From contig URIE01000001.1 in assembly GCA_900547805.1 (NCBI GenBank), positions 1-49,422 on the forward strand: a stretch of 49,422 nt of DNA, written 5' to 3'. The notes under the pieces were generated by a model. The model worked only from the letters and a program-made list of their open reading frames with translations, did not search any database and was not told the origin of the DNA. Numbering within the stretch: the first letter of the stretch is position 1; each line of letters starts with the position of its first letter. Positions 8,177 to 35,935 of the stretch are shown one piece after another. A program made the position numbers and the translations under genes. Origin of the DNA: an uncultured Collinsella sp. Its GTDB lineage: Bacteria; Actinomycetota; Coriobacteriia; Coriobacteriales; Coriobacteriaceae.

Positions 8177-9490
8177 TTAGTGCTCGGGCGTCAGGATCAC
8201 CAGGGCGTCGTGCTCAAAGGAATGCTGAGCCACGCGCACGGTGCCGTCGCCATTGTCGCGAACGGGCAGCTTGGCGATACGCTTGGCCTCCATGTCGAGG
8301 GCCGTCGCCGACCAGCCGCGCGCACTATCGAGCTTAAACGTAAGTGCCGTGGTGCGCGGCAGATAGGTGACGACACGCTCGCCAATACGCGCCACACGGA
8401 TGGACTCGCGCGCGTCATCGAGCAGCTCCTGTGCCGGGATAACGGCGAGAGCGTCGTCGCTAGCCGTGGCACCCAGGCCGGCAAGCACGTGCTCGATGGC
8501 GGCAAAATCCCACACGCCCGCAAACTGCAGACACTCCTGCCAGCGGAACGGCATGTCAAAGCCCTCGCCCAGCACCGAACCCTGGCTGCGCGATGTCTGC
8601 CAGTTCCAAACGCCGTGGGCGCCGTAGGTCACGCCCGCGCTGGCGCCGGCAAGGATCGAAGACCACACGCTCGCGCGACAGTCCTGCGCGGTAAAACGCC
8701 AGTACACGTTGCGCGACGCACCCATCTGCTCGTAGCAGGGCTCGGAGTTGACCATCGGCTTTTTGGGATAGCTGGCGATAAAGTCCTGCGGCAGGTGCCA
8801 GGCCTCGGGCTGGCCTTCGTAGTTGTGGCCGGGCTGGAACATATAGAAGTCCAGGCGGTCCAAATACTGCGCGGGAATCGTGCGGTTACCGCGATTGATG
8901 TGCATGGTACGCAGGGCCTCGGGCGCGCGCTTCGCAACCTCGTCGAGCGCATCCTCGTAATAGGCAATCGCCTCGTCACCGGCAAAGTCCGTGTCGCCCG
9001 TCACCACATAGACGGGATCGAACTCGCCCAGGTTCTCGACGACGCGGGCAACGTGGGCACGGACCTCCTCGCGCGGCATAACCTCGGCACCGCAACGCTC
9101 GGCGATCTTAGCGCCCCAGGTACCGGGCACGTAGTTGCACCACATGAGCACGAGCGCCGGACGAATGCCGTGCTCGACGGCAGCGCGGCACATGGCGGCG
9201 GCGCGATCCCAATACGCCTGGTTGGGTTGAGACCAATCAAAGCGCACGCCATCCTCGCTGGCATAGGGCCAAATGCCCAGATCGGGGCAGCAGCGATCCC
9301 ACTGCGGCAGCGTGTTAATCTGCAGCACGTTCATGCCCTGCTCGGCGCGGCGGGTCAGATAGTAGTCCCAGTCGGCCTCGGGGATGCTGGTAAACGCACT
9401 CCAGCACGTATCGGCAAACCAAAAGAACGGCTTGCCCTCGCACAAAAAACCGTCCTGACGACCGTTGACGGTCAGTTTTCCCAAACTCAT
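8177..9490 (-). CDS. DUF4038 (apiosidase-like, GH140-related) glycoside hydrolase
   Basis: GKPFFWFADTCW, Y..RRAEQGMNVLQ, MFQPGH, KPMVNSEPCYE and GVTYGAHGVW match DUF4038 proteins. GAAAGGA RBS fits ATG 9490. No signal peptide. Confidence 0.8.
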   Translation of the reverse strand: MSLGKLTVNGRQDGFLCEGKPFFWFADTCWSAFTSIPEADWDYYLTRRAEQGMNVLQINTLPQWDRCCPDLGIWPYASEDGVRFDWSQPNQAYWDRAAAMCRAAVEHGIRPALVLMWCNYVPGTWGAKIAERCGAEVMPREEVRAHVARVVENLGEFDPVYVVTGDTDFAGDEAIAYYEDALDEVAKRAPEALRTMHINRGNRTIPAQYLDRLDFYMFQPGHNYEGQPEAWHLPQDFIASYPKKPMVNSEPCYEQMGASRNVYWRFTAQDCRASVWSSILAGASAGVTYGAHGVWNWQTSRSQGSVLGEGFDMPFRWQECLQFAGVWDFAAIEHVLAGLGATASDDALAVIPAQELLDDARESIRVARIGERVVTYLPRTTALTFKLDSARGWSATALDMEAKRIAKLPVRDNGDGTVRVAQHSFEHDALVILTPEH

Positions 9491-9623
9491 CTGCATGTCC
9501 TTTCGCTCGATAAAGGAATTGCGAACCGGCAGAAGCTTTCGCGGTAACCCCTGATGCGAAAGCCCCCGCCGTTTAACAAACCCCTGCGGGCGGACACCAC
9601 TTGCCCACTCCAGTCTACCTTGC

Positions 9624-9660
9624 AAGAAGGGCCCCGCCGGGCTTGCGCCTGACGGGGCCC
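9624..9660 (-). terminator. Putative intrinsic terminator/hairpin after PTS gene
   Basis: gggccccg...cggggccc stem followed by TTCTT on the minus strand. Confidence 0.55.
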
Positions 9661-9701
9661 TGTCGTGTAGGTAAGGTCGTATGCGACCGAATGGCTTGGC
9701 C

Positions 9702-11129
9702 TTAGGCCTCCATCTCGGCGAGCTCCTCCTTGGAGAAGCCGGCGACGAAGACGACGGCAGCGGCGATGACAAAGGAGATTGCCATACCGACGATAGCCCA
9801 GACGGTGTTCATCTGGCCACCCTGCAGGTAGTTGGTGAAGACCAGGAAGTTGGAGGCACCGCCAGCGAGGTAATAGGTAACGCCCATGAGGCCGGAGAAC
9901 ACAGCGCCGATGGCACCGCCGATGAACATACCGAACATGGTGCGACGGAAGCGCATGAGGATACCGAAGAGTGCGGGCTCGGTGACGCCGCCGGCGATGG
10001 CGGAGATGACGTAGCCCAGGGCAAGACCCTTCTCGTCGGGGTTCTTCATCTTGAGGAAGGCACCGAAGGCGCAGCCCCAGACAGCGGCCATAGCGCAGTT
10101 GGTGGAAACGAAGACGAAGGGATCGTAGCCGGCAGCGATGATCTGAACCTGAGCGAGCAGGATGACGGGCATGTGCATACCGCAGACCACGAAGAGCTGC
10201 CAGAAGGCGCCGAGGACGGCCATGACGAGCAGGATACCGATGCCACCCATGTCAGCGAGACCGAAGAGGGCGTTAGCGATGAGGCTGCCGATCTCGTTGC
10301 CGAGCGGGGCGAGGACGATGAAGGCGATGGGGATGGTAACGATCATGGTGCAGAACGGCGTGAAGACCGTGGAGAGCACGTCGGGCATGACCTTCTTAAA
10401 GAACTTCTCGACGAAGTAGAGGACAGGCACCGAAAGGATAATCGGCAGGACGGACTGCTGATAGTTGGCAGCGGCGATCTGAATGCCGTAGACGGAGATG
10501 ATTCCGCCGCCATCCTGGGTCGCGACACTCACGACGGACGGGGCCATGAGGGCGCCGCCGAGGAGCATGCCCAGAACCGGGGAGGCGCCGAGCTTCTTAG
10601 CGGCGGCATAGCCCAGGTAGATGGGGATAAAGGTGAACGTGGCCTCGTACAGGGTGGTGTAGAGGAACGTGTAGGTCGGATCGGTGTCAGAGAGAACGCC
10701 GAGCATGGTGGGACCGAGGACCGCAGCGATGGTGCGGAACAGACCGCCGGCCATGAGCAGCGGGATCAGCTGGGTCATGGAGCCCGACAGATAGTCGAGG
10801 ATGATGTTCGGCAGGTTCTTGAGCTCGAACTTCTCCTTGGGAGCATCGAGGTTCTCGTCGACCGCGGCACCCTGCTTGACGCCGGACATGGCGACGAACT
10901 CGGCGAGCACCTTGGGCACGTTCTGGCCGATGATGACCTGGAGCTGGCTGCCGGCGAACTGGCAACCCAGAACACCCTTGACCTTCTTGATCTTCTCCAC
11001 GTCGGCCTTGTTGTTGTCCTTGAGCGTCAGACGCAGACGCGTCATGCAGTTGGTGGCGACGGAAACATTCTCCGCACCGCCCACGAGCTCGAGGACATCG
11101 GTGGCAATCTGCTTGTTATCTACTGCCAT
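9702..11129 (-). CDS. PTS beta-glucoside/sucrose-family EIIBC (no EIIA domain)
   Basis: EIIB motif NCMTRLRL; EIIC motifs GMH and GVTEPALFG; GGGAGGGG RBS. Confidence 0.9.
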   Translation of the reverse strand: MAVDNKQIATDVLELVGGAENVSVATNCMTRLRLTLKDNNKADVEKIKKVKGVLGCQFAGSQLQVIIGQNVPKVLAEFVAMSGVKQGAAVDENLDAPKEKFELKNLPNIILDYLSGSMTQLIPLLMAGGLFRTIAAVLGPTMLGVLSDTDPTYTFLYTTLYEATFTFIPIYLGYAAAKKLGASPVLGMLLGGALMAPSVVSVATQDGGGIISVYGIQIAAANYQQSVLPIILSVPVLYFVEKFFKKVMPDVLSTVFTPFCTMIVTIPIAFIVLAPLGNEIGSLIANALFGLADMGGIGILLVMAVLGAFWQLFVVCGMHMPVILLAQVQIIAAGYDPFVFVSTNCAMAAVWGCAFGAFLKMKNPDEKGLALGYVISAIAGGVTEPALFGILMRFRRTMFGMFIGGAIGAVFSGLMGVTYYLAGGASNFLVFTNYLQGGQMNTVWAIVGMAISFVIAAAVVFVAGFSKEELAEMEA

Positions 11130-11235
11130 GGGACCCCTCCCCATATCATCGTGTGCCTACTCGTTTGGGCGTAGGCACGCCTTTGGCTCGGCGACTATAA
11201 CCCCTTACGGCCACCGAACCCTTGGATACGCTGTC

Positions 11236-11264
11236 GTAAACAATGTGTTTACTGAACGTTTACT
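11236..11264. promoter_or_regulatory. Putative LacI-type operator (gtttactgaacgtttact) in the divergent PTS/esterase promoter region
   Basis: CG-centred quasi-palindrome; similar motifs at 11558-11569, 34512-34568 and 35847-35862. Confidence 0.55.
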
Positions 11265-11619
11265 GGCTTTAGTTTACACGGAACGTCTAATTTGTGGCAA
11301 TTTTGCCGTCTGTAGTCCGGTGAACGGTAGGAAATCGGGGGTGAACGTACTTGAACGGTAAGGGATTGTCTATTTGACGCTCTGCTGCTAAATGCCTATT
11401 TACGTGGTCTTTTAATTTGGTAAACACCTCTATTCTTTGTTGACCCATCAACAAAAGCCCTGCTAAATGGTGATAAACGAATGTTTAGTAATTTGTTGAG
11501 TGTTCATTTTGACCGTTTACCGAGTTCATCTGCCTGTTCTGTAGCTCTGCATTAAACTAAACATGTTTAAGTTGTATTGCCGCTGATGTTTACCACTCGC
11601 GGCGCAGAGGAGGCAGCTC

Positions 11620-12957
11620 ATGGAACTCAAATCGTGCACCTACGCAACCGTCACCACGCTGGGAGACTTTGGCCCCTGGATCAGCAAAGTCGTGCTCGAC
11701 CTGCCGTGCACCGTTCGCGCCAACGATATCGATGCGCGCACCTTCCATATATATGTAGAGCGCCATGAACGCACGGGCGAGATCCTGATGCGCAAAGAGC
11801 GCGGCGCCGACCACGCCGCACCTTCCGTAGGCTATGTCGACGTCCTCGCCGCCTATCCGTGCGATGAGTGCGGACGCAAGCTCGCCTTTGGCACCCATGT
11901 GGCGCTCGAGATCGCCGAGCAGCGCCTGACCAAGAAGATCGAGGGCAGCGTGATGGGCTCGCGCTTGCTCGACGACCAGCTGCGCATCACGCAGCTCGCG
12001 GCCCTTCCCGGCAATGACGGTGACGATCCAACCTGCGGCCTGGTCTTTGACACCTGCCGCGGCGACATCTGTCCCGCGCTCAAGGGCTGGAGCAATGCCA
12101 CGCAAAAGACCGCCGTCAACGGCATCGCGCTCGAGTACGGCTTCTTTGAGCCCAGCTTTAAGGCCGAGGACTCCGCCTGCTTCAACCCCTTCGCGCCCGA
12201 AACGACAGTCGTGCCCCAGAAGGCCCCGCTCGTGGTGTACCTGCACGGCGCTGGCGAGGGCAAGGGCGCTACGCAAGGCGAGGGCGCCACGCGCGCTTAT
12301 ATCGGCAACCGCGTGACGGCCATCAGCCAGGCGCAGATCCAACGCTACTTTGGCGGCTTTGCCTGGGTTCTCGTGCCGCAGTCGCCCACGTTTTGGATGG
12401 ACAACGGCACTGAGCAGCTCGGCCACTCCAACCAGAGCATCTACTCCCCCGTCATTAAGGCGCTCATCGACGAGTTTGTCGCCGAGCATGCCGACCGCAT
12501 CGACACCGACCGCATCGTGGTCGCTGGCCTTTCCAACGGCGGCTTTATGACGCTGCGCCTGTGCGCCGACTACCCCGAGTTCTTCGCCGCGGGCCTTCCC
12601 TGCTGCGCGCCGTGGTACAACGCCACGGACGAGGACGTTGCTGCCCTTGCCAAGACACCGCTGTGGTTTACGCACTCCAAGGGCGATGAGCTCGTGATAC
12701 CGCAGGAGACCGTGCTGCCGCTCACGGCTCGCCTGCGCGCTGCCGGCGCCAACGTGCATCTCACCTACTTTAGCCATGTCGAGGACCTGACCGGGCGCTA
12801 CCGCGAGGCCGACGGCTCGCCCAAGAAGACGTTCAACCATGGCGTGTGGATCCACCAATTCAACGACCTGTGTTATCAAGACTTCGACGGGGGCAACGTA
12901 CTCATCGACGGCGAGCCGGTGGGCTGCTGGGAGTGGTCGGCCAGGGTCGACAGGTAA
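11620..12957 (+). CDS. Alpha/beta-hydrolase esterase with N-terminal Ig-like domain (EstA-like)
   Basis: PLVVYLHGAGE, nucleophile elbow GLSNGG, C-terminal HGVW; GAGGAGG RBS. Confidence 0.8.
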   Translation: MELKSCTYATVTTLGDFGPWISKVVLDLPCTVRANDIDARTFHIYVERHERTGEILMRKERGADHAAPSVGYVDVLAAYPCDECGRKLAFGTHVALEIAEQRLTKKIEGSVMGSRLLDDQLRITQLAALPGNDGDDPTCGLVFDTCRGDICPALKGWSNATQKTAVNGIALEYGFFEPSFKAEDSACFNPFAPETTVVPQKAPLVVYLHGAGEGKGATQGEGATRAYIGNRVTAISQAQIQRYFGGFAWVLVPQSPTFWMDNGTEQLGHSNQSIYSPVIKALIDEFVAEHADRIDTDRIVVAGLSNGGFMTLRLCADYPEFFAAGLPCCAPWYNATDEDVAALAKTPLWFTHSKGDELVIPQETVLPLTARLRAAGANVHLTYFSHVEDLTGRYREADGSPKKTFNHGVWIHQFNDLCYQDFDGGNVLIDGEPVGCWEWSARVDR

Positions 12958-12969: not shown

Positions 12970-13092
12970 GCGGGGACCGGGGCTTAGTTTTGCAAACGTC
13001 CTCGGGCATGCATGGGTCGGCGCTTTGCGCTTCGCGCTGCGCCGACCCATGCCCCCTGTGGAATGTTTGCAAAACTAAGCCCCGGTCCCCGC
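12970..13092. repeat. 123-bp nested palindrome
   Basis: Perfect 28-bp outer arms (gcggggaccggggcttagttttgcaaac) plus 14-bp inner arms (gcatgggtcggcgc). Confidence 0.9.
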
Positions 13093-13220: not shown

Positions 13221-14732
13221 ATGACTCGCGATTTAACTCGGGTGATTGTTACTACTGATATGGAAGTCGATGATATGAACTCGCTCGTTCATTTGGCTCT
13301 GTATCTTAATGTACTTGATGTTCAGGCTGTGGTGTATACGGCTTCGCAGTATCACTTTCTTGGGGATGGGGTTCATACGCTCGGCGAGGTGAATCCTCAT
13401 TGGCGGACTAAAGGGCGTCGCTCTTATGAGTGGGATGTTGTGCCTCATGAGCCTGATCCCACGGCTGGGGAGCTTCTTGAGTATCGACCGTTTCCTGAGC
13501 ATTGGATCGAGAGCCTCTGGAGCAATGAGTATGCCCAAGCCTGGCCTCAGCTGCAGGCTAATGCGGCCGCTGCCGGCGAGTCTCCGTTTCCCTCGCCTGC
13601 TCAGTTGATTGAGCGTACGTTTGTGGGCAATGTTGCCTTTGAGGGCGATGTGCGTGAGGAGACTGAGGGCTCGCGCGCGATTGCTCAAGCGATCTTGGAT
13701 GATGACCCGCGTACGCTTTGGCTGCTCAGCTGGGGCGGCATGAATACCATTGTTCGTGCGCTCATGAGTATTGCTGAGCGCTATCGCGATACGCCCGAAT
13801 GGCCTTCTGTGCAGCAGCGCGTCTATCAGAAGGTGCGCGTGATGGGTGTTGCCGATGGCGTGGGGCAGGACAATTCTTGGCTCGACCATGGGCATGAGCT
13901 CTTCCCCGATCTCATCTTTTGGTGTGTGCCCTATATGTATGGCGGCTATGTCGATGCCAAGATGGCTCAGCCCGATACGCTGCCGCTCTTTCAGGCTCCC
14001 TGGCCCGAGCAAAATCTCACGCAGGGCAACGGTCCCCTTATGGCGCGCTATATGCTCTATGGCGATGGCAAGGTGTACGAAAACGAGCCCGAGCGCTTTC
14101 AGTTTGGCAAGCATGCGCGCTTGGATTGGGGCTTAGAAGGCATGCCTGCGATGCAGTTTGAGCGCGGCGACTTTATGGCCGAGGGCGACAGCATGACCTA
14201 TATCCCGCTGCTGCCGTTTGGCCTGCGCGGCATCGATAATCGCGACTTTGACACGTTGCTCGGCCGCATGTTCCTTGACGGGCATCCCGACTCGGACGCA
14301 CCCGCCGGCTTTGCAGCCATAGGCACGCCCGTCGATGGCAATCCTAATCCCTATCTGCGCGCCTACCAGGAAGACTTCGCCGCTCGCGCGCAGTGGTGCG
14401 CCCATGAGCCCGCGGCCTGCTCGCATCCGGCGTATGTTGCCGAGGTCACGGGCGACATGAGCGCCGCGGCCGGCGAGCGCGTTGCTCTTGCAGCGACCAT
14501 CGTCGACCCCGATGGCAGGGGCTTCGATGCTCATTGGAATGTCACCATGGGACCGTCGCGCTATGCAGGCGCTCAAGATCTGTCGCTATGGCAGGAATGC
14601 GCGACGGACGCCACGTTCACCGTACCCGCCGACGCGCAGCCCGGTGACCGCTTCGTGCTCACCCTCAGCGTTAAAACCCGCGCCGAGCGCCCCTGCACCC
14701 GCTACGCCCAGGTCGCCATCACCGTCGCGTAG
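13221..14732 (+). CDS. DUF1593 nucleoside-hydrolase-like protein with C-terminal Ig-like domain
   Basis: RVIVTTDMEVDDMNS, ETEGS...DDDPRTLW..WGGMNT, EGDS and QEDFAARAQW match DUF1593 proteins. Confidence 0.8.
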   Translation: MTRDLTRVIVTTDMEVDDMNSLVHLALYLNVLDVQAVVYTASQYHFLGDGVHTLGEVNPHWRTKGRRSYEWDVVPHEPDPTAGELLEYRPFPEHWIESLWSNEYAQAWPQLQANAAAAGESPFPSPAQLIERTFVGNVAFEGDVREETEGSRAIAQAILDDDPRTLWLLSWGGMNTIVRALMSIAERYRDTPEWPSVQQRVYQKVRVMGVADGVGQDNSWLDHGHELFPDLIFWCVPYMYGGYVDAKMAQPDTLPLFQAPWPEQNLTQGNGPLMARYMLYGDGKVYENEPERFQFGKHARLDWGLEGMPAMQFERGDFMAEGDSMTYIPLLPFGLRGIDNRDFDTLLGRMFLDGHPDSDAPAGFAAIGTPVDGNPNPYLRAYQEDFAARAQWCAHEPAACSHPAYVAEVTGDMSAAAGERVALAATIVDPDGRGFDAHWNVTMGPSRYAGAQDLSLWQECATDATFTVPADAQPGDRFVLTLSVKTRAERPCTRYAQVAITVA

Positions 14733-14811: not shown

Positions 14812-14876
14812 GTTGCGGTGGAATAGTTCCTGTTTGACCTTCTAAGGCCGCCATTTAGGAACTATTTCACCGCAAG
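14812..14876. repeat. 65-bp inverted-repeat element, family B, copy 2
   Basis: Same arms and spacer ends (gtttgacc...cattt) as 8027-8091, in the same orientation. Confidence 0.85.
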
Positions 14877-15007: not shown

Positions 15008-15745
15008 ATGGGCTTCTTTGACAAGATGTTCGAGAAGAAAGAGTGCGCGATTTGCGGTACCGAGCTGGGACTTCTAGGTAAGACCAAGATCAACGAAGGC
15101 TACCTGTGCAAAGAATGCGTCGGCAAGCTCTCTCCCTTCTTTGGCGGTTATCGCTCTAGCACCGCGGACGACATTCGCGAGCAGCTCGCCTATCGCGAGG
15201 CTAACGCCGAACGCCTGGCATCGTTCAACCCCACGCGCACGCTCTCGGCCGGGCGCACCAATATTATGCTCGACGAGGACGCGGGCCTGCTGATCATTAC
15301 CTCGCAGACGCGCTGGCGCGACGCCAACCCCGACATCATCGAGTTTTCGCAGGTACTGGGCTGCGATATGGATATCGATGAGCATCGCACCGAAATCTAT
15401 CGCGAGACCAAAGACGGCGAGCGCAAGAGCTACGATCCGCCGCGCTACGACCTGGATTACGACTTTAACCTGACCATCCACGTCAATACGCCGTACTTTA
15501 CCGAAATCAATCTGTGCGTGAACGAATCCACCATCGAGCAGCGCGGGTCCATCGAGTACCGCGAGGCCAAGCGCCAGGCTACCGAGGTCCGCGACGCGCT
15601 GGTGCAGCTGCGCCAGGAAACGCGCGACAGCGTCGTTGCCGCCAAGGCCCCCAAGACCGCGGTCACCTGCCCCTTCTGCGGCGCGACCACCATTCCCGAT
15701 GCCAGCGGGCGCTGCGAATACTGCGGCGGCGCCATCGGCGCATAG
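15008..15745 (+). CDS. DUF4428-like zinc-ribbon protein
   Basis: N-terminal KKECAICG...GYLCKEC; C-terminal CPFCG...CEYCG; GGGAGG RBS. Confidence 0.8.
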   Translation: MGFFDKMFEKKECAICGTELGLLGKTKINEGYLCKECVGKLSPFFGGYRSSTADDIREQLAYREANAERLASFNPTRTLSAGRTNIMLDEDAGLLIITSQTRWRDANPDIIEFSQVLGCDMDIDEHRTEIYRETKDGERKSYDPPRYDLDYDFNLTIHVNTPYFTEINLCVNESTIEQRGSIEYREAKRQATEVRDALVQLRQETRDSVVAAKAPKTAVTCPFCGATTIPDASGRCEYCGGAIGA

Positions 15746-15769
15746 CCCTCGGCACGGAAAGGACCGATC

Positions 15770-17089
15770 ATGGCCTTCGAAAGCGTTAACTATCAGTGCC
15801 CCGCCTGCGGCGGCCCCCTGCATTTTGCCAGTGCCGAGCAAAAGCTCGTCTGCGACTACTGCGACTCGCGCTTTGAAGTCGAAGAAGTCGAGGCCCTCTA
15901 CCGGGAGCGCCAGAGCAAGGCAGATGCCAAGGCCGATGCGGCGGCATCCCCCAAGCCCGCGGCCAACGAGGCTGTGCAGGAGCTTGCCCAAAACGCCGGC
16001 TATATTTGCTCGTCATGCGGCGCCGAGCTGATCTCGGACGGCACCGTTGCCGTCACCACCTGCCCGTACTGCGGTAACCCCGCCGTGGCACCCGGCCAGC
16101 TCTCGGGTGACTTCTCCCCCGACCTGGTGATTCCATTTAAGCTCGGGCGCGACGACGTCATGAAAGCCCTCAAAGAGCACTACAAGGGCAAGATCTTGCT
16201 GCCCAAGAGCTTTGTCACCGGAAACCACATCGATGAGGTCCAAGGCGTTTACGTGCCATTTTGGCTCTACGGCGCCCATGTTGACGGCGAAGTGTACTTT
16301 GATGCGACCAACGAGACCGTGACCGAGGAATCCGACCGCACCGTCACGACCACCGACCACTACGATGCCTACCGTAAGGGCAATATCTCGTTTGAGCGCG
16401 TGCCCGTCGACGGATCGTCCAAGATGCCCGACGGCCACATGGACGCCATCGAGCCGTTTGACTACGACGCGCTGCGCCCGTTCTCGGTCGCCTACATGCC
16501 CGGCTACATCGCCAACCGTTACGATGAGGACTGCGAGACTTGCAAGGCCCGTGCCGAGCGCCGTATGGAAGAAAGCACGATCTCGGCCCTGCGCGAGACC
16601 GTTATCGATGAGTACGACGATGCCTCGGTCGAGAGCAAGCAGCTCGACTACACCTGGGAAGACAGCGACTACGCCTTGTTCCCCGTCTGGATGCTCTCGA
16701 CCTCGTGGAACGGCAAGAGCTACCTGTTTGCCATGAACGGCCAAACCGGCCGTATGGTCGGCGAGCTCCCCTGCTCCAAGCCCAAGCTCATTATCGCCTC
16801 GCTGCTGTTCTTTGTGATCGGATTTGTCCTCTCCCAGATTCTCTTTATGGGCGAATACGCCTTCGATCCGGATTACCTCACCTTTGATATCGAGGGCATC
16901 CTCATCAACATCGTCGCGCCGCTGATCATCGTGATCATCGGAGACGTGCTGCTGGTAGGCCAGCTCAAGACAGCCAACGAAGCGACCCACGCCGACGAGT
17001 ACTGCGGCGAGCTCGACCTGGTCGAGAAACACGACACCTTCAGCCACACCGAGACCACCGTTGTCATGAAGGACGACAAGGACGACTAA
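15770..17089 (+). CDS. YdjG-like zinc-ribbon membrane protein
   Basis: Four CxxC pairs; P..VIPF, GVYVPFWLY, IEPFDY, PVW and NGQTG motifs; two C-terminal TM helices. Confidence 0.8.
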   Translation: MAFESVNYQCPACGGPLHFASAEQKLVCDYCDSRFEVEEVEALYRERQSKADAKADAAASPKPAANEAVQELAQNAGYICSSCGAELISDGTVAVTTCPYCGNPAVAPGQLSGDFSPDLVIPFKLGRDDVMKALKEHYKGKILLPKSFVTGNHIDEVQGVYVPFWLYGAHVDGEVYFDATNETVTEESDRTVTTTDHYDAYRKGNISFERVPVDGSSKMPDGHMDAIEPFDYDALRPFSVAYMPGYIANRYDEDCETCKARAERRMEESTISALRETVIDEYDDASVESKQLDYTWEDSDYALFPVWMLSTSWNGKSYLFAMNGQTGRMVGELPCSKPKLIIASLLFFVIGFVLSQILFMGEYAFDPDYLTFDIEGILINIVAPLIIVIIGDVLLVGQLKTANEATHADEYCGELDLVEKHDTFSHTETTVVMKDDKDD

Positions 17090-26616: not shown

Positions 26617-26617
26617 G

Positions 26618-27572: not shown

Positions 27573-27600
27573 CGTGAGCTCATTTTGAGCGACGAAACCT

Positions 27601-28089: not shown

Positions 28090-28103
28090 GGCAAATCCTT
28101 TCG

Positions 28104-28204: not shown

Positions 28205-28360
28205 GCCGCGCAGCCGATAATATCGACCGTTCAGCATCTAGTTTTCTGACCCCTCACCTATTGATGCTGCGTCGTCCGCAATGCAGAGCGTGCGAGCAGC
28301 TCAACAGCCAAGAACCCGGCAGCGACTGTAATCGCCACCAGACCAATCGATGGCCTGCAC

Positions 28361-29299
28361 TTACAGCACTCGCAAACAAGTTGCAACGGCACCGTAGATA
28401 TTGGCGTCGTTACCCAGCTGTGCCGGGACTACGTGCGGACGAGGCATATCTTTCAGAAAACCAGTGTAGTGCGCCATGACGTCATCCATCTTACGGTCGA
28501 GCGCCTCGAACAGCGCGGGATGGCAGCTGATGCCACCACCAATCGCGAAGACCGCCGGGTCGATAACGCACTGCAGATTCACAAGCACACGATCAAACAG
28601 CTCAGCATAGGCATCCAATCCGCGCTGCACGGCGGCGACTTCGGACGCGCCCCCGCGCTCCAATAGCTCGAAGATCCGTCGGCCATCGAGGGCCTCCAGT
28701 TCAGCTTCATCCGAAATGCCAAGTTCGACTGCCACGAGATTCTGCAGGCCGTGCCATCCGCTCGAAGTCGCGAATGTATCGCAATGATCAAGCGGTTCGT
28801 TTACGTTGTTGGACAGGAAGCTGAACTCGCCCGCGAAGCCGCCCGCACCCGTCAGCACCCGGCCGTCAACCACGATGCCTCCGCCGATGCCCGTACCGAG
28901 TACCGCCACGCAACCCACGTCCACGCCGCGCAACGCGCCGGCAGCGTACTCGCCAAGCGCACAGCTTTTGCCGTCGTTGACAACGGTCACAGGCAGCCCC
29001 AGCCGTTCGCGCAGCGCTCGGCCAAGCGGAAACCCGTCCATGTACGGCAGCGCACCACCGCGATGGATCGTCCCGTCTGGATCGACCTCGTAACCGAAGA
29101 TGCCACCCGGGGCCGAGATGCCCACGCCTACAACCTGTCCGCGATACGGCCCTACGAGTGCCGCGAGCGCGTCGACCAGCTGATCGGCCGAGACGAACGC
29201 CGTCGGAATCGAACCACGGTCACCAAACTCGTAGTTCTCATTCACAATCGCCCATTTGACGCTCGTTCCGCCGATATCAATTCCAAACAGCTGCCTCAT
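28361..29299 (-). CDS. ROK family sugar kinase (BglK-like, no Cys-rich Zn motif)
   Basis: GIDIGGT, NDGKSCALGE, GTGIGGG, AGEF, LGNDANIYGA; no N-terminal HTH. Confidence 0.88.
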   Translation of the reverse strand: MRQLFGIDIGGTSVKWAIVNENYEFGDRGSIPTAFVSADQLVDALAALVGPYRGQVVGVGISAPGGIFGYEVDPDGTIHRGGALPYMDGFPLGRALRERLGLPVTVVNDGKSCALGEYAAGALRGVDVGCVAVLGTGIGGGIVVDGRVLTGAGGFAGEFSFLSNNVNEPLDHCDTFATSSGWHGLQNLVAVELGISDEAELEALDGRRIFELLERGGASEVAAVQRGLDAYAELFDRVLVNLQCVIDPAVFAIGGGISCHPALFEALDRKMDDVMAHYTGFLKDMPRPHVVPAQLGNDANIYGAVATCLRVL

Positions 29300-29325
29300 G
29301 GCCGCTCCCCTCTCGCTCAATGCGT

Positions 29326-29706
29326 CTACATGCTCGCAGGCTCTTCCATAAAGGCCATGAGCCTGCGGTTGAGCAGACGACCCCAAAACGTGCAGATACC
29401 GCCCGCCAGGAGCGCGGCGGCTACGGTGCCGATACCGATGCCCACCACAGTACCCGTACGCACAAGCCCGTAGACCAGTGCGATACATACACAGCCCCCG
29501 TCAAAGAAATACTCTGCCTTACCAAATTCACAGTGAAACACCTAGGAGAGCGTCTGCACCATGCCGTCAGGCGCAACGGGGACGAGCCGCGCGGAAACGA
29601 TCAGCGTCACGCCGAGCGCCGTGCGTGCATTCATTACAACGCCGCAACTCAGGAATAGAATCCCACATACGTAGACCATCATTCGACGCGTTGGACTCTA
29701 CCGCAT
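29326..29706 (-). pseudogene. YczE/YitT-like (DUF6198-type) membrane protein remnant
   Basis: MR*SPTRRMMVYVCGILFLSCG...ALGV|TLIVSARLVPVAPDGMVQTLS*...FD...GIGIGTV. Two TAG stops (29698, 29542) and about half the usual length. Confidence 0.75.
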
Positions 29707-29775: not shown

Positions 29776-31263
29776 TCACTTGTACGCAATCGTCGCCTCG
29801 ACGGCATGGCGCCAGCCGGCGATCTTTTTGGCTCGCTCGTCGGCGGGCATCGACGGCTCCACGATGCCGCGGGCGCCGTAGACGTCGACGACATCGCGCG
29901 TATACATGCCCAGCGCGATACCGCAGGCCCAAGCCGCGCCCAGACCGCTCATCTCGTCGTTGCTCGCAATGCGGATGGGCGAGCCGACCAAATCGCTCTC
30001 AAACTGCATCAGGTACGCATCGCGCGTGGGGCCGCCGTCAACACGAAGCTCGGCAAGCGCCGCGCCCGAATCCTCGACCATCGCATCAATGACGTCAAAA
30101 ATCTGATAGGCGATCGACTCGTCGGCAGCCTTTACGAACTCCGCGCGGCCCGTGGTGCGTGTCATGCCAAAAACGCATCCCTCGGCATCACTTGCCCAGT
30201 GCGGCGCACCCAGGCCGGTAAACGCCGGCACAAAGTAAACATGGCTCGCCGGGTTGGCGGCGTAGCACAGGTCGGTGACCTCCTCGGGGTTGTTGATGAG
30301 CTCCAGGTCGTCGCGCAGCCAGGTCTTGACGGCGCCGGCGTAGCTCACGTTGCCCTCGAGTACATACTCGGTCACACCATCCATACGCCACGCAAGCGAG
30401 CTCGAAAGCCCGTGCGAGCTGGCGACAAACTCGTTGCCGACGTTCATCATGACCGAGCTGCCGGTGCCATAGGTCGCTTTGGCCATGCCGCGGCTGTGGC
30501 AACCCTGCGCAAACAGGGCCGCATGGCTGTCACCCAGCACGCCGTGCACCGGCACGGGCGCCGGCAAAAAGCCGCCCAGGTCCGTTGTGCCAAACAGACC
30601 GTCGGAGTCGGTCACCTGCGGCAGACAGGACGGATCGATGCCAAAGGCCTCGCACACCGGCTCGCTCCAGCAGCCACGGCGCAGGTCGAAGAGCTGCGTG
30701 CGGCTGGCATTGGACCAGTCACAGCGAAACTCCGCGCCGCCCGTGAGCGTCCAGACCACCCAGGCATCGATGGTGCCCAGACACAGCTCACCCGACGCCG
30801 CGGCCTCGGCAGCCGCCGGAACGTTCGCAAGGATCCAAGCCATCTTGCCCGCCGGATAGTAGGGCGAGAGCACCAGACCCGTTGTGTCACGCACCAGCTC
30901 TGCCACGCCTTCACGCGCCGCAAGCTCGTCACACAGCTCGCGGGCGCGGGCACACTGCCACACCACGGCGTCGCACAGCGGCTCGCCCGTCGTGCGGTTC
31001 CAGGCAACGGTGGTCTCGCGCTGGTTGGAGATGCCAATACCAGCAATGTCGGCCGGATTGACCCCGGTCTCCTCCACCACGGCACGCGCCACGGCCAACA
31101 CGTTGGCGGCGATCTCGACCGGATCATGGCTCACCCAGCCGGCATCATTGACAATCTGGCGATGCGAGCGGTCGGCACGATGAATCAGATGGCCGCCCTC
31201 GTCCACCAGCAGCGCCTTCGTGCCCTGCGTGGATTGATCGATTCCGATGATGTAGCGGCCCAT
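29776..31263 (-). CDS. FGGY-family kinase (glycerol-kinase-like; candidate apulose kinase)
   Basis: IDQSTQGTKA, SNQRETT, SNASRTQLF, KATYGTGS, RVDGG; in operon with split transketolase. Confidence 0.88.
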   Translation of the reverse strand: MGRYIIGIDQSTQGTKALLVDEGGHLIHRADRSHRQIVNDAGWVSHDPVEIAANVLAVARAVVEETGVNPADIAGIGISNQRETTVAWNRTTGEPLCDAVVWQCARARELCDELAAREGVAELVRDTTGLVLSPYYPAGKMAWILANVPAAAEAAASGELCLGTIDAWVVWTLTGGAEFRCDWSNASRTQLFDLRRGCWSEPVCEAFGIDPSCLPQVTDSDGLFGTTDLGGFLPAPVPVHGVLGDSHAALFAQGCHSRGMAKATYGTGSSVMMNVGNEFVASSHGLSSSLAWRMDGVTEYVLEGNVSYAGAVKTWLRDDLELINNPEEVTDLCYAANPASHVYFVPAFTGLGAPHWASDAEGCVFGMTRTTGRAEFVKAADESIAYQIFDVIDAMVEDSGAALAELRVDGGPTRDAYLMQFESDLVGSPIRIASNDEMSGLGAAWACGIALGMYTRDVVDVYGARGIVEPSMPADERAKKIAGWRHAVEATIAYK

Positions 31264-31281
31264 GGCCACCCCTTTCAAAAT

Positions 31282-31319: not shown

Positions 31320-32261
31320 TTACTCTGCGGGAAGGAACTCGGCAACGGTCTTGGCGATTCCTTCGCCGGTGAGGCCGTAGTGCGCGAAGACCTCGGGCGA
31401 GGTGCCGGTGATGACCGGCGCGTCGGGCAGGCTCAGGCACTTAACCGGACGCGGGCAATGCTCGCCCACGACCTGCGCGACCATGGAACCCAGACCGCCG
31501 AAGGGGCTGTGCTCCTCGACCGTCACGACGGCGCGCGTGGCACCGGCGGCCTCAATCACGGCCTCGGCGTCGAGCGGCTTGACGCAGTACATGTCGAGCA
31601 CGGTGGCGGAGATGCCCTGCTCGGCGAGCAGATCAGCGGCGTCCACGGCATGGCGGACCATCTCGCCGGTGGCGACAATCGTCACATCGGTGCCGCGACG
31701 CACCCAGGTGGCGCGGTCCATCTGGAACGGGCACTCGTCCTCGGTGTACACGTCCTCGACCGGGTTGCGGCCCACGCGGATATAGGCCGGCTTGTTGTCG
31801 GCAACCAGTGCGCGCACGAGCTCGGCAGTCTGAAAACGATCGCTCGGCAGATACACGCGCATGTTGGGAATCGCGCTCATGGCAGCGATATCCTGCGCGG
31901 AGTGATGGCTCATGCCCAGAGCGCCGTAGGACACGCCGCCCGAAATGCCGATGAGCTTGACGTTGGTGTTGGAGTACGAGACGTCGACCTTGCACTGCTC
32001 ATACGAGCGCGTGGTCACAAAGGACGCCGGCGAGGCGGCCCAGGCCTTCTTGCCGCACGAAGCCATGCCGGCGGCGATACTCACCAGGTCCTGCTCGGCG
32101 ATGCCGACCTCGACGGACTGCTGGGGATACTGATCGAAGAACGGCGTGAGCGATGCGGAGCCGCGGGAGTCGGAGCACAGGACGACGATGTCCTTATCGG
32201 TTGCGGCGGCCTCGAGCAGCGTGTCGCAGATAACCTTGCGGTTGGCGATCTTGTTAGCCAT
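31320..32261 (-). CDS. Transketolase C-terminal subunit (candidate AptB)
   Basis: DSRGS, EVGIAEQ, GVSYGALGMSHHS and TVEEH; overlaps the N-subunit stop. Confidence 0.9.
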   Translation of the reverse strand: MANKIANRKVICDTLLEAAATDKDIVVLCSDSRGSASLTPFFDQYPQQSVEVGIAEQDLVSIAAGMASCGKKAWAASPASFVTTRSYEQCKVDVSYSNTNVKLIGISGGVSYGALGMSHHSAQDIAAMSAIPNMRVYLPSDRFQTAELVRALVADNKPAYIRVGRNPVEDVYTEDECPFQMDRATWVRRGTDVTIVATGEMVRHAVDAADLLAEQGISATVLDMYCVKPLDAEAVIEAAGATRAVVTVEEHSPFGGLGSMVAQVVGEHCPRPVKCLSLPDAPVITGTSPEVFAHYGLTGEGIAKTVAEFLPAE

Positions 32262-33090
32262 TGATGGCCTCCTTATGGGCAGCGAAATCGGCGATGATCT
32301 GGGCATATTCCTCATCGTTGGGCAGGTGGTGATGCCAGGCGGCTTTGTCCTCCATGACGGGCGAGCCATAGCCCTTCACCGTGTTGAGGATGATGACCGT
32401 GGGCTTTCCGCAGGTCTCGGCCGCAAGCGTCAGCGCGGCATCGATGGCCCGAACGTCGTTGCCCGGAATGGAGAGCACGTTCCAGCCGAAGGCAGCCCAG
32501 CGCTCCTCCTGCGAATCCTGCTTCATGACGTCCTCGGTGCTGCCGCTGATCTGCAGGCGGTTGCGGTCCACGAGCGCGCACAGGTTATCGAGCTGGTAGT
32601 TGCCACCGCTCATGGCGCCTTCCCAGACCGAGCCCTCGGCAAGCTCGCCGTCGCCCATGATGGTGTAGACGCGGTAGTCGCGGCCGTCCATCTTGCCGGC
32701 AAGCGCCATGCCGACGGCCACGGGCAGGCCATGGCCCAGCGAACCGGAGTTCATCTCGATGCCCTTGAGCTTATTGTTGGGGTGGCCGATGTAGGGGCTG
32801 CCGAACTTGGAGAAACGGGCCTTGACGTCGTCGAGGTCCAGATAGCCCTCGTGGCACAGCACCGCGTAGTAGGCCTCCATGGCGTGGCCCTTGGAGAGCA
32901 CGAAGCGGTCGCGGTTGGGATCGTCGACGGTCTCGGGCGAAATGTTAAGGTGGTTGGCATAGAGGGTCATGAGGGCGTCGATCACCGACATGTCGCCGCC
33001 AATATGGCCGCCGGCGCCAGCCATGATGATATCGACGCAATCACGGCGAAGGTCCCAGCGCAGGGACTCAAGCTCTTCGATAGTTGCCAT
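32254..33090 (-). CDS. Transketolase N-terminal subunit (candidate AptA)
   Basis: GHIGGDMS, RDRFVLSKGH, GSLGHG, TPP motif GDGELAEG...DRN, WHH. Confidence 0.92.
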   Translation of the reverse strand: MATIEELESLRWDLRRDCVDIIMAGAGGHIGGDMSVIDALMTLYANHLNISPETVDDPNRDRFVLSKGHAMEAYYAVLCHEGYLDLDDVKARFSKFGSPYIGHPNNKLKGIEMNSGSLGHGLPVAVGMALAGKMDGRDYRVYTIMGDGELAEGSVWEGAMSGGNYQLDNLCALVDRNRLQISGSTEDVMKQDSQEERWAAFGWNVLSIPGNDVRAIDAALTLAAETCGKPTVIILNTVKGYGSPVMEDKAAWHHHLPNDEEYAQIIADFAAHKEAING

Positions 33091-33092: not shown

Positions 33093-34493
33093 CTACTCTC
33101 CTCGCAGGTAGGCTTTGACGTCTTCTTCAATGGGGTCGTACAGGTCGGGCTGGATGCCGATGTACTTGCACGCCTCGTAGAGCACCGGCACCACGTTGGC
33201 GTGAATGGCCACGCAGTGGTGAATGTAGGGGCCCTCGACGATCTTGGCCTCGAGGCGCTTGAGGTTTTCGACCTCCACCCACAGGTAGGTGCCCATGCCG
33301 GCCGGGCCGTCGATGCCGCGGGCGTTGCCCAGCAGCAGCGAATACTCGCCGTTGTCGCCGTCAAAGCGGGCAAGGGTGAGATCGCCGTGTTTGGCCTCGG
33401 CCGTCAGCGCGCCGGGGTGGTCGAAAGCCAGCGGGTAGGTGAGCTTGGGCTTGACGGCCGCGCAGCTGCAGGGCCAGGGGCCGCAGTGCTGCAGCAGCTC
33501 GCCGTTCTCGTTATCGGGATGGCGCACGGTCCAGTCGGCGAACATGCCGCGGTGACGGCCCAGGTCGGCGGCCTCGACCATCAGCGCAGTGATGGCGCCG
33601 TGGATATCGGTCTCGCATACGACGGGAATGCCCATCTCGTTGAGGATGGCGTTGGCGGCGCAGGGCATAATGCCCAGCTCGTCCTGCAGGGCGTTCCAGC
33701 ACTGGATGGCGCCGGCGTTGCAGCCGTACTTCTCGACCAGGCGCTTCATAGCGATGGCGAGCCCTGCGACCGCGGGGACCTTGTCCTCGGGTATGCAGAT
33801 CTCAAAGCTGTGGCGAATGTGGTCGAGCATGGCGGCCATGGCCTGCTCGTCGGCCTGAGCGTCGCGCACAGCCTGAACAAGTTCGGTCATGGGAATGGGC
33901 GAAAGCTGAATATTGAACTTCTCGAGCAGCTCGCCCTCGTTGCACATGGTGGACCAGAAGTCGAACGGACGGGTCGCCATCTGCAGGATGCGCGTGTGCT
34001 TGAAGGTCTTGACCACGTTGCACACGGCCAAAAAGTCCCAGACGCCGCGCTCGAACTCGGGATCGGTCAGGCGGCAGTTGGTCATATAGGTAAAGGGAAC
34101 CTGGAAGCGGCGCAGAACCTTGCCGGTGGCGAACAGGCCGCACTGGCTATCGCGCAGGCGGGTGCCGTCGGGCTCGGGACGCTCGTCGCGCGGGCCCCAC
34201 AGCAGCACAGGCAGACCGAGCTCGCGGGCAAGACGGGCGCAAACGTACTCGGTACCAAAGTTGGCGTGGCACAGCATGATGCCGTCGACGCCCTCGGCGC
34301 GGAACTTCTTGACGATGGGCTCGATATGGCTGTCGTCAAACAGCAGGCCCTCGTCGTTAATGTCGTCGATGTCCACGATGTCAACACCGATCTCGCGCAG
34401 GCGATCAGCCGTCAGACCGCGATACTTAAGCGCGTCCGGCGCGCTAAAGATGCTGCGGCGCGTGGGCACAAAACCGAGCTTGATCTTATCCAT
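33093..34493 (-). CDS. L-fucose/L-arabinose isomerase family protein (candidate apiose isomerase)
   Basis: NFGTE, RDSQCG, AIQCW, CETDIHG, HCG and YIHH motifs. Confidence 0.85.
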   Translation of the reverse strand: MDKIKLGFVPTRRSIFSAPDALKYRGLTADRLREIGVDIVDIDDINDEGLLFDDSHIEPIVKKFRAEGVDGIMLCHANFGTEYVCARLARELGLPVLLWGPRDERPEPDGTRLRDSQCGLFATGKVLRRFQVPFTYMTNCRLTDPEFERGVWDFLAVCNVVKTFKHTRILQMATRPFDFWSTMCNEGELLEKFNIQLSPIPMTELVQAVRDAQADEQAMAAMLDHIRHSFEICIPEDKVPAVAGLAIAMKRLVEKYGCNAGAIQCWNALQDELGIMPCAANAILNEMGIPVVCETDIHGAITALMVEAADLGRHRGMFADWTVRHPDNENGELLQHCGPWPCSCAAVKPKLTYPLAFDHPGALTAEAKHGDLTLARFDGDNGEYSLLLGNARGIDGPAGMGTYLWVEVENLKRLEAKIVEGPYIHHCVAIHANVVPVLYEACKYIGIQPDLYDPIEEDVKAYLRGE

Positions 34494-34511: not shown

Positions 34512-34568
34512 ACATGTTCAGTAAACAGACGCATGTTTCGTTTTGTTCTGTTTACTAAATGTTTTACT
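34512..34568. promoter_or_regulatory. Putative LacI operators upstream of the isomerase operon
   Basis: acatgttcagtaaac and gtttactaaatgttttact resemble 11247-11264. Confidence 0.55.
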
Positions 34569-34659
34569 CTACTGTTTAGAAGTTTAACGCGAAATACCCG
34601 TAGACGGTAGAGAAATCAGCCTAAACGGTATGTAAACAAACTGAACATACAAGGGCATC

Positions 34660-34685
34660 AAAAAGAGGGCCCAAAGGACCCTCTC
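34660..34685 (-). terminator. Terminator after LacI gene
   Basis: agaggg...ccctct stem with a T-run on the minus strand. Confidence 0.6.
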
Positions 34686-34750
34686 TTAGTAGCGTTATGT
34701 ATGGCTGCCTTAGCGAGCTTTGCCTCCCTACGGCCCAGCGTTGCCTTTGC

Positions 34751-35761
34751 CTAGATCTCACGCACGCTTTGGCGCTCGACAAAATAGGTCGACACGGCCG
34801 TCTTGCAGGTATAGCTCTTGGGATTGCGGATGTTGCCCACCAGGCGGCGCACCGCGATCTCGCCCACCTCGTGCTTGGGAACGTGCACCGTGGTGAGCGG
34901 CGGATTGGAGAAGGCGCCCAAAGACAGATCGTCAAAGCCGATGATTGAGACATCCTCGGGGACACGTATGCCGTGCTCGTTCAGCGCGCGCATGGCGCCT
35001 ACGGCGAGCACGTCGTTTTCGGCAAAGAAAGCCGTCGGCAGGTCGTCGCGCGAGACGCTGTCGAGCCATGCGCCCATGTCGCGATAAGCACCTTCGAGCG
35101 TGGTGCCCAGTGTGACGCGCCATGTCGGGTTGGCCTCAAGGTCCGCATCCTCAAGCGCTTGGCGATAGCCGCGCTCGCGATCCTTAAAGTTGCGGATGCG
35201 AAGGTCGCCTGCCAGATAGCCGATTTGCTTGTGACCCTTCTCGATAAGGTAGTCCACGGCGCGCAGCACCGAGTCGGTGTTGGCAATGACTACGGCATCG
35301 AAGTACTGACGATCGCTCCAGCCATCGAGCACGATCAAGTGGGCGGCAGCGTTGGCGAACAAGGCATAGTCTTCCTCACCCAGCTCGGTACCCATCAGCA
35401 CGATAGCGGCGGATGGATCGGCGATCAGGCCCTCGACCTGCGGACGCACGGCGTCCAAGTCGCTAAAGTCGAGCGAGACAAAGCTCGTGCTCATACCGTG
35501 ACGGCGCGCCTGGCGCTCCACGCCCTCAATGACCGCAGGATGGAAGGTGCTCTCGTCCAGAATGGCGCCCGTCTTGCGCGCGAGCACGAACTGAATGCTC
35601 TCGAGCTGCGTCGACTGCTGATAGCCCAGCGACTGTGCGCACTCCAGGATGACCTTGGCGGTCTCCTCACTCACGCTGCGCTTGCGGTTGAGCGCGTTGG
35701 ACACGGTCGCAGGCGAAAAACCGGTGATGCGGCTGATCTCGCGAACACTTGCTTTGGCCAT
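34751..35761 (-). CDS. LacI-family transcriptional regulator
   Basis: HTH SVREIS..GFSPATVSNALN; C-terminal VPEDVSIIGFDD...PPLTTV. Confidence 0.93.
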   Translation of the reverse strand: MAKASVREISRITGFSPATVSNALNRKRSVSEETAKVILECAQSLGYQQSTQLESIQFVLARKTGAILDESTFHPAVIEGVERQARRHGMSTSFVSLDFSDLDAVRPQVEGLIADPSAAIVLMGTELGEEDYALFANAAAHLIVLDGWSDRQYFDAVVIANTDSVLRAVDYLIEKGHKQIGYLAGDLRIRNFKDRERGYRQALEDADLEANPTWRVTLGTTLEGAYRDMGAWLDSVSRDDLPTAFFAENDVLAVGAMRALNEHGIRVPEDVSIIGFDDLSLGAFSNPPLTTVHVPKHEVGEIAVRRLVGNIRNPKSYTCKTAVSTYFVERQSVREI

Positions 35762-35935
35762 TGTTCCCCCTAGCAACGGCCGTGGCGGAGCATCGCAACT
35801 CGATAGCTCGGCAAATAAACGACCGCAAATTCAATCTAAACAGAGTAGTAAATGTTTATTAGCTAGTTTAGCCTGTTGTCAAGCGAAGTGGCACGACTAT
35901 TCCCCCAACGGGCGCATTTGTCCATCTTAACGTTA

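Follow-up and report, generated by a model that had tools for sequence, protein, structure and literature searches.

A candidate two-part, phosphotransferase-fed gene system for apiose-containing plant glycosides in an uncultured Collinsella

The transketolase pathway of D-apiose catabolism, with the isomerase ApsI, the kinase AplK and the two transketolase subunits AptA and AptB, was reportedly described by Carter et al. in 2018. BT1012, which we take to be the protein of PDB entries 3kzs and 5msy and the glycoside hydrolase family 140 (GH140) apiosidase of the rhamnogalacturonan II locus of Bacteroides thetaiotaomicron, is said to have had its apiosidase function established by Ndeh et al. 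in 2017. The bgl, asc and lic operons combine a beta-glucoside phosphotransferase system (PTS) with a 6-phospho-beta-glucosidase, and lactobacilli take up plant glucosides by a PTS. Here, we describe a stretch of 49,422 nucleotides from an uncultured Collinsella sp. (contig URIE01000001.1; the whole stretch is called the window), in which two gene loci are predicted to form a PTS-fed system for apiose-containing plant glycosides (apiosides). One paper (PMC13001218), on the apiose cluster of Escherichia coli ST131 and E. fergusonii, reports that the cluster of E. coli SE15, composed of aplK, aptA, aptB, an ABC importer with a DUF2291 protein and two short-chain dehydrogenases/reductases (SDRs), supports growth on D-apiose; it puts forward the two SDRs as hypothetical substitutes for the isomerase apsI of Pectobacterium.

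The window belongs to an assembly of 1,930,887 bases in 208 contigs, which is 86% complete; among named organisms, its proteins have their closest relatives in Collinsella and Coriobacterium. Genes were called by Pfam and NCBIfam scans over all long open reading frames, with the starts corrected afterwards. These scans bore out the gene list for both loci given in the original prediction, which had been made from the sequence alone. In the NCBIfam scan, no apiose-specific model was matched by any gene of the system. Locus 1 comprises the following genes:

8177–9496, minus strand: PF13204 (DUF4038, GH140-like) hydrolase, candidate intracellular apiosidase (Pfam, 243.6 bits against a cut-off of 26.5)
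9702–11144, minus strand, probable start at 11129: PTS1, a Glc-family EIIBC permease with no EIIA domain (PF00367, 52 bits; PF02378, 104 bits)
11620–12957, plus strand: EstA-like esterase, with an EstA_Ig-like N-domain and an alpha/beta hydrolase domain (Pfam; PDB 3doh, an esterase, E 1.4e-15)
13221–14732, plus strand: DUF1593 protein with a nucleoside-hydrolase-like domain, conserved companion (PF07632, 125.6 bits; PDB 2yhg, E 6.2e-16)

Locus 2 comprises:

29776–31278, minus strand: GlpK-like FGGY kinase, candidate apulose kinase (Pfam; AplK-type GTG-SSV and GDS(H/Q) motifs)
31320–32261, minus strand: C-terminal (Pyr and C) transketolase subunit TK-C, AptB-like (Pfam; 36% identity to E. coli AptB)
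32254–33090, minus strand: N-terminal (thiamine diphosphate) transketolase subunit TK-N, AptA-like (Pfam; clade with AptA)
33093–34493, minus strand: aldose-ketose isomerase of the FucI/AraA superfamily, 466 amino acids, candidate D-apiose isomerase (NCBIfam SftI, BLASTP)
34751–35761, minus strand: LacI-family regulator with helix-turn-helix and sugar-binding domains, candidate repressor for both loci (Pfam, NCBIfam)

The gap from the DUF1593 gene to the kinase gene is 15.0 kb, in line with the 15–20 kb given earlier for the spacing of the loci, and locus 1 holds no regulator gene, as had been claimed; a LuxR-type gene (6371–7951) is located just outside it.

Like the ApsI/AplK/AptAB pathway, locus 2 has an isomerase, a GlpK-like FGGY kinase and a two-subunit transketolase in one operon; TK-N falls in a clade with AptA, some pocket substitutions of AplK recur in the kinase and the isomerase is homologous to an enterobacterial FucI-like gene product, while the identities are only 25–41%. 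Where the known apiose clusters have CUT2-type ABC import of free apiose and a SorC-type regulator, a PTS, cytoplasmic glycosidases and a LacI protein are encoded here. The hydrolase shares the PF13204 family and the motifs conserved along the barrel with BT1012 and the protein of PDB entry 8t9w; unlike them, it is devoid of a signal peptide and of extra domains, is encoded with a PTS permease and, compared with BT1012, may act on a phosphorylated small glycoside instead of pectin fragments. With the beta-glucoside PTS operons, the system has in common an EIIBC protein that belongs to the same superfamily and has the cysteine motif of EIIB, GH1 6-phospho-beta-glucosidases nearby and a scheme of import, phosphorylation and then intracellular hydrolysis. 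It differs from them in that the locus is without BglG or EIIA, the partner enzyme is GH140-like rather than of family GH1 or GH4, and there is a tie to a pentose operon. Loci of Kluyvera and Silvania also place a glycoside transporter and an apiosidase-like enzyme beside an apiose operon; there, the transporter is a cation symporter instead of a PTS and the hydrolase has a C-terminal Collagen_bind_2 domain.

We consider it moderately probable that the two loci together form a two-part, PTS-fed system for apiosides. PTS1, fed by separately encoded EIIA, HPr and EI proteins, would import the glycoside and phosphorylate its hexose, after which the cytoplasmic PF13204 enzyme would release free D-apiose, possibly helped by the esterase and the DUF1593 protein, which may remove acyl groups or cut a second linkage. 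The leftover phosphoglucoside would be hydrolysed by a 6-phospho-beta-glucosidase such as GH1_a (described below). The FucI-like isomerase would convert apiose into apulose and the GlpK-like kinase apulose into apulose-4-phosphate, from which, with glyceraldehyde-3-phosphate, the split transketolase would make xylulose-5-phosphate and dihydroxyacetone phosphate. One regulator, most likely the LacI protein encoded by the isomerase gene, would control both promoters. All functional assignments are computational, and every substrate, the order in which the steps follow, the choice of regulator and what the esterase, the DUF1593 protein and the GH1 enzyme do are to be read as predictions.

The arrangement of the genes in relatives ties the two loci to each other. 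In genomes G248 and G206, a lacI gene is divergent from an operon of isomerase, TK-N, TK-C, kinase, PTS1 and DUF5060-PF13204 genes, with a DUF1593 gene adjacent. In G070 and G234 (genus g16), a series of lacI, PF13204, DUF5060-PF13204, PTS1 and a second lacI gene is divergent from isomerase, TK-N, TK-C, kinase and esterase genes; in G070, the esterase orthologue comes after the kinase gene. G266 and metagenome contig L160 have all of the parts side by side. Since the relatives are contiguous and the window contains an extra block of 8.5 kb, the split is a derived state: the original prediction of a split regulon stands for the window, where there are indeed two separate loci, and does not extend to the relatives. 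The block itself (15008–23495) is, going by this comparison, an insertion into the supercluster.

Co-occurrence was analysed in 301 Coriobacteriia genomes. The isomerase is present in 42, and these include all 38 genomes with an orthologue of the PF13204 hydrolase and all 40 with PTS1 at 60% identity or more; five further genomes contain only PTS1 paralogues of 42–49% identity. The DUF1593 gene is found in 37 genomes, each of which also carries a PTS1 orthologue and the isomerase. The system as such is present in 33 of the 72 sampled species of the genus, this one excluded. G248 and G206 have divergent DUF5060-PF13204 genes that escaped the protein search at E <= 1e-20 and were recovered by Pfam. 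Judged by synteny, co-occurrence and the shared motif described below, the two loci are taken to form one real, conserved system. The core of the original prediction, a PTS-fed apioside locus tied to an apiose operon, is thus upheld by the fused loci, the co-occurrence, the unique motif, the TK-N clade and the AplK-like kinase pocket.

The isomerase orthologues of relatives (69–99% identity) always precede transketolase and kinase genes, and a lacI gene is located beside the isomerase operon in every relative examined. Elsewhere in the genome, there are a canonical GlpK (672 bits, on contig C27) and two other split transketolases, which makes the kinase and transketolase of locus 2 specialised paralogues; against the GlpK equivalog model of NCBIfam, the locus 2 kinase scores 535, under the cut-off of 590. 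TK-N is 41% identical to AptA in direct comparison and 43–44% identical to enterobacterial AptA homologues. In a maximum-likelihood tree of 12 N-terminal subunits rooted on E. coli Tkt, TK-N and its counterparts from relatives form a clade with AptA (support 97/93), which leaves out the two split transketolases of the same genome and three E. coli Tkt sequences. Four columns that are invariant in five generic transketolases are changed alike in all three AptA and all four window-type sequences (G to S, LGQG to LGHG, F to W and WHG to WHH), while one column groups AptA with the generic enzymes. In the kinases, the motifs GTG-SSV(M/V) and GDS(H/Q) are common to AplK (3/3) and to the window-type sequences (5/5), where GlpK (2/2) instead has GTG-CFM and GDQQ; the Phe of GTG-CFM packs against glycerol in E. 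coli GlpK.

The isomerase scores 23.1 bits with Pfam PF02952, under the cut-off of 29.3, and matches the NCBIfam model SftI (E 9e-27); a full-length BLASTP match (E 3e-42, 25% identity) leads to a PF02952-positive enterobacterial FucI-like isomerase. The FucI-like label given to it originally is therefore weak by Pfam and sustained by the other two comparisons. ESM Atlas and the names of homologues give merely 'fucose isomerase family', and the PDB sequence search with the isomerase returned just a de novo protein at a meaningless E-value of 0.0032. Among 80 enterobacterial-type loci found with E. coli AplK, the FucI-like gene (PF02952, 112 bits) is present in 37, in 34 of them between aptB and aplK, and the SDR pair is present instead in 34; only one locus has both types. 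An importer of substrate-binding protein, DUF2291 protein, ATPase and permease like that of E. coli accompanies the module in G258 and in 12 metagenome loci; the G258 proteins are 41% (substrate-binding protein), 47% (ATPase) and 51% (permease) identical to those of E. coli. Furthermore, PF13204 hydrolases, esterases and MFS_2 symporters recur by the module in the Kluyvera and Silvania loci L097, L103, L108 and L136, and the module is likewise found beside PF13204 hydrolases and such genes in metagenome loci L188, L200, L202, L204 and L224. The assignment to apiose rests on the clade of TK-N with AptA, the AplK-like substitutions, the enterobacterial FucI-like gene and the E. coli-type importer of the relatives.

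The start of the PF13204 hydrolase gene is an ATG at 9496 or 9490, behind a ribosome-binding site, and not the TTG at 9772. A check of the sequences detected no hydrophobic N-terminus in the hydrolase, the esterase or the DUF1593 protein, so after the start correction the hydrolase shows no signal-like N-terminus and its description as cytoplasmic holds. Against the PDB, the hydrolase matches 8t9w, annotated 'Apiosidase' (E 4.6e-20), 3kzs and 5msy (E 6.7e-15) and also 4qfu, and in these alignments the FFW, MFQxGH and EPxYE motifs are retained. By model and by match to solved members, it can be placed in the apiosidase-like family; beta-D-apiofuranosidase activity is a candidate function to which the gene context points. 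Literature searches on 8T9W and DUF1593 gave nothing useful.

In PTS1, the EIIB cysteine is Cys33, in the sequence CMTRLR, and the best NCBIfam model is that of the beta-glucoside IIABC permease, TIGR01995 (346 bits). Orthologues of PTS1 are part of the catabolic operon in G248 and G206. A PF13204 gene adjoins or nearly adjoins PTS1 in all contexts examined (the window, G266, G078, G122, G070, G234, G248, G206 and L160), which argues for a glycoside rather than a free sugar as the substrate. The retention of an ATP-dependent kinase suggests that apiose is released unphosphorylated, so that the phosphate of the PTS would go to another moiety. Glc-family EIIBC proteins phosphorylate the hexose part of their substrates and are known for glucopyranosides; by analogy, the permease family implies that the moiety phosphorylated by PTS1 is a hexopyranoside. 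We infer that apiosyl-glucosides with a free glucose O6, such as an apiin-type substrate, fit this logic. Four EIIA-Glc domains and HPr are encoded in the genome.

The promoters of PTS1 and of the isomerase operon share an operator-like motif, with these sites in the window:

11246–11263: operator-like site 1 (TGTTTACTGAACGTTTAC), about 100 bp upstream of PTS1, in the word cluster 11236–11272
34549–34567: operator-like site 2 (TGTTTACTAAATGTTTTAC), 57–71 bp upstream of the isomerase start
35845–35859: degenerate third copy of the motif (GTAGTAAATGTTTAT) upstream of lacI, from the motif search
11554–11573: 20-bp palindrome AAACTAAACATGTTTAAGTT, 47 bp upstream of the esterase start, its core conserved in G266 and G122

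The assembly contains 484 GTAAAC/GTTTAC words, and in just two stretches, 11236–11272 and 34521–34632, do at least three of them fall within 150 bp. The 15-mer GTTTACTRAAYGTTT has two matches assembly-wide at zero or one mismatch, at 11247 and 34550, both on the plus strand; they are located 103–117 bp upstream of PTS1 and 57–71 bp upstream of the isomerase gene. The only occurrences of the 12-mer TGTTTACTGAAC are those at 11246 and 34516. The best k-mer common to nine orthologous promoter regions is TGTTTACT(G/A)AA(C/T)GTTT. Site 1 is conserved in G266, G078 and G122, and site 2 in these three and in G200; the positions are preserved in G266 and G078 (another genus), G122 and G200 despite diverged flanks, and a perfect GTAAACGTTTAC palindrome is present ahead of PTS1 in G206. 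The shared operator-like motif of the original prediction thus proves to be found nowhere else in the genome and to be preserved at orthologous promoters. The same element at both promoters argues for one regulator for both loci, so the system is probably co-regulated, and the most plausible binder is predicted to be the LacI protein encoded beside the isomerase.

A number of observations weigh against the proposed apioside system, and they are given here with the alternatives that they favour. It is unlikely, in our view, that locus 2 degrades D-apiose while locus 1 handles an apiose-free plant glycoside, the two being linked just by a shared island or regulator. Such a reading would suit the large distance of the PF13204 hydrolase from the solved apiosidases (E 5e-20 to 7e-15) in a family whose specificities are largely unknown, the absence of a known substrate for the DUF1593 protein and the esterase, and the ordinary bglG-PTS-GH1 operon in the neighbourhood. 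The co-occurrence counts overstate independence, given that the carriers are kin and the genes are on one island, by which the events are not independent. Set against this are the placement of PTS1 and PF13204 genes inside the operon of isomerase, transketolase and kinase (G248, G206) or in one divergent arrangement with it (G070, G234), the repeated occurrence, in unrelated lineages, of PF13204 genes by the module together with transporters of other kinds, and the confinement of PTS1 orthologues to isomerase-bearing genomes (40/40).

Quite unlikely is that the module acts on some other rare or branched sugar, its likeness to ApsI, AplK and AptAB reflecting enzyme class only. Identities to AplK and AptAB of 36–41% are not above those to housekeeping paralogues: the kinase has 39% identity with AplK and 40–41% with GlpK, and TK-N is 43–44% identical to the generic transketolase halves of its own genome, equal to the 41–44% with AptA. 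The phylogenetic comparison with the characterised Apt and Apl enzymes that had been proposed earlier succeeded in part, in that TK-N groups with AptA while the kinase tree is an unresolved trichotomy. The transketolase tree has just 12 rows and drew a long-branch warning from the program, and four other TK-N columns group the window-type sequences with the generic enzymes against AptA. The isomerase is just 25% identical to the enterobacterial FucI-like one, a possible ApsI, and matches the sulfoquinovose isomerase model at 94 bits. On the other side are the well-supported clade of TK-N with AptA, the pocket substitutions common to the kinase and AplK and to TK-N and AptA, the importer with substrate-binding protein and DUF2291 protein in relatives, which resembles the one in the apiose cluster of E. 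coli, and the repeated linkage to apiosidase-like genes.

If PTS1 imported free apiose or an oligosaccharide of apiose only (apiobiose), there would be neither a phosphoglucoside nor a GH1 step. The position of PTS1 directly after the kinase gene in G248 and G206 would agree with this, as would the lack of a GH1 gene consistently in the cluster outside Collinsella and the result that no shared motif was found upstream of GH1_a. PTS1 itself remains below the TIGR01995 cut-off (346 against 614.7 bits), with a model that spans an EIIA domain absent from PTS1, and is for missing this cut-off classed as a Glc-family permease without defined specificity; as for the phosphate relay, EI was not found in the 86%-complete assembly and is present in five of five close relatives. 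Import of free apiose is nevertheless improbable: the PF13204 gene next or nearly next to PTS1 in every context examined implies a glycoside, phosphorylation of apiose by the PTS would leave a separate ATP-dependent kinase without a purpose, and Glc-family EIIBC proteins are known for glucopyranosides, from general knowledge and from the NCBIfam neighbours of PTS1.

The motif is only pseudo-palindromic, other dyads with variable spacers are nearby, and an even-length palindrome scan gave one palindrome near the esterase gene and none upstream of the isomerase gene; a simple LacI palindrome of fixed spacing was for these reasons dropped as a description, and LacI as the binder is a guess. That the shared words are no operator at all, with promoter or AT-rich spacer features or duplication remnants in its place and the loci regulated independently, would account for the varying dyad spacings and for the lack of a clean palindrome ahead of the isomerase gene, and is very improbable given a 15-mer unique to two promoters in 1.93 Mb, its conservation between diverged flanks at the orthologous sites of G266 and G078, and the perfect palindrome before PTS1 in G206.

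Returning to the proposed PTS-fed apioside system, two further genes of the window may be connected with it:

23672–25102, minus strand: GH1_a, a GH1 6-phospho-beta-glucosidase, candidate for the downstream step (NF007158, 895 bits against a cut-off of 639)
28361–29299, minus strand: ROK-family sugar kinase, neighbour of the FGGY kinase gene (PF00480; start at M64)

GH1_a is located about 0.3 kb from the DUF1593 gene in the related Collinsella contigs L147, L157 and L165, and 1.7 kb from it in G122; it could be the final step of the system. The ROK gene next to the kinase gene is conserved in G122 and G266. A role of the ROK protein as a regulator was ruled out, because with the start corrected to M64 it contains no helix-turn-helix and is a plain sugar kinase.

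The six genes of the 15008–23495 block, between the DUF1593 gene and GH1_a, encode a DUF4428 protein, a zinc-ribbon protein, an SPFH protein, a LuxR response regulator and two histidine kinases (one HisKA_7TM). A DUF4867-LuxS pair (26812–28089) is also located between the loci; in G122 and G200, it likewise adjoins the genes for the kinase and the ROK protein. Directly upstream of lacI, an operon of a bglG antiterminator, a PTS EIIBC and a GH1 6-phospho-beta-glucosidase gene occupies 35936–39928, followed by a pair of nucleoside hydrolase and ribokinase genes at 40109–42110.

Locus 1 is flanked on both sides by a 63-bp hairpin repeat (8028–8090 and 14813–14875, in the same orientation), the second copy being at the edge of the 15008–23495 block. 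Its arms are TTGCGGTG.AATAGTTCCT and AGGAACTATT.CACCGCAA; there are 41 arm matches in the assembly, or about 20 copies, and the repeat looks like a repetitive extragenic palindromic (REP-like) or miniature inverted-repeat transposable (MITE-like) element. Two inverted repeats with arms of about 40 bp, at 12985–13090 (between the esterase and DUF1593 genes) and 25283–25410 (upstream of GH1_a), could be terminators or further repeat elements. An Rfam scan of positions 6000–41000 gave no matches. In the PTS1 promoter, GTGAACGGTA-type words between 11320 and 11360 show a phasing of 21 and 11 bp, conserved in G266 and G078. The GTGAACGGTA repeats were considered as a system-specific motif and rejected, with 15 exact copies genome-wide; the word occurs twice as inverted pairs (G000 C12:14039–14064 and C16:17392–17416) and probably serves a different regulator with a more global role.

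In the RNA libraries of one study (three runs), there are contigs that are 90–99% alike over the stretch from the kinase to the isomerase gene, over lacI and over GH1_a, for which DNA carry-over is a possible source. One contig bridges 31333–34170. The same runs contain 26–34% of the sampled words of locus 1, and the stretches 16000–23300 and 25338–29339 are uncovered by the contigs.

Some relatives add variations on the gene set. In G266, a second set (L052, 3409–7997) of Abhydrolase_10, DUF5060-PF13204 and PTS EIIC genes, the last without EIIB, is located directly upstream of the isomerase gene, which suggests two apioside uptake branches in one organism. An Xfp phosphoketolase gene is present beside the module in L049 (4963–7575, G070) and L181 (about 14927); its product would turn xylulose-5-phosphate into acetyl phosphate, regenerating the glyceraldehyde-3-phosphate used by the transketolase. 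In Kluyvera georgiana (L108, 538–10506) and in L097, L103 and L136, genes for a ROK-like protein, a PF13204 hydrolase with Collagen_bind_2, an MFS_2 symporter and a SorC-type regulator are found by aptA-aptB-(FucI-like)-aplK. These loci look like a symporter-based counterpart, for apiosides, of the enterobacterial apiose cluster, and a literature search returned no paper on PF13204-aptAB loci of Kluyvera or Silvania.

Among the literature matches listed, as represented by their titles and the beginnings of their abstracts, there is no paper that joins apiosides or apiose with a PTS in such a pathway, in keeping with the original statement that no PTS-coupled apioside pathway had been described. 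The system, most likely a PTS-fed pathway for apiosides, would be a new one built from known kinds of parts. According to PMC10602602, apiose is a constituent of pectin and of over 1,200 specialised metabolites of plants, and a 2026 study states that microbial apiin-deglycosylating enzymes 'were not directly characterized' (PMC13740267). The system described here supplies candidates for a transporter, a cytoplasmic apiosidase, an esterase, a DUF1593 enzyme, a catabolic module, a regulator and an operator, and it suggests functions that can be put to the test for the DUF1593 protein and for the FucI-like isomerase of the window type. With it, the range of glycosides used through a PTS would come to include one of a branched pentose. 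The module beside PF13204 hydrolases, esterases and three types of transporter suggests that intracellular use of apiosides is widespread. A more specific proposal, possible and rather doubtful, is that in gut Coriobacteriia this is a PTS route for dietary phenolic and flavonoid apiosides (apiin-type apiosyl-(1->2)-glucosides), which would be phosphorylated on entry, lose their apiose to the GH140-like enzyme in the cytoplasm and have their aglycone freed inside the cell, with the DUF1593 protein as a new furanosidase acting on a ribose-like cis-diol. The system is a strain-variable trait of a common gut genus and, if the proposed function is true, its presence in about half of the sampled Collinsella species could explain differences in apioside conversion from person to person.

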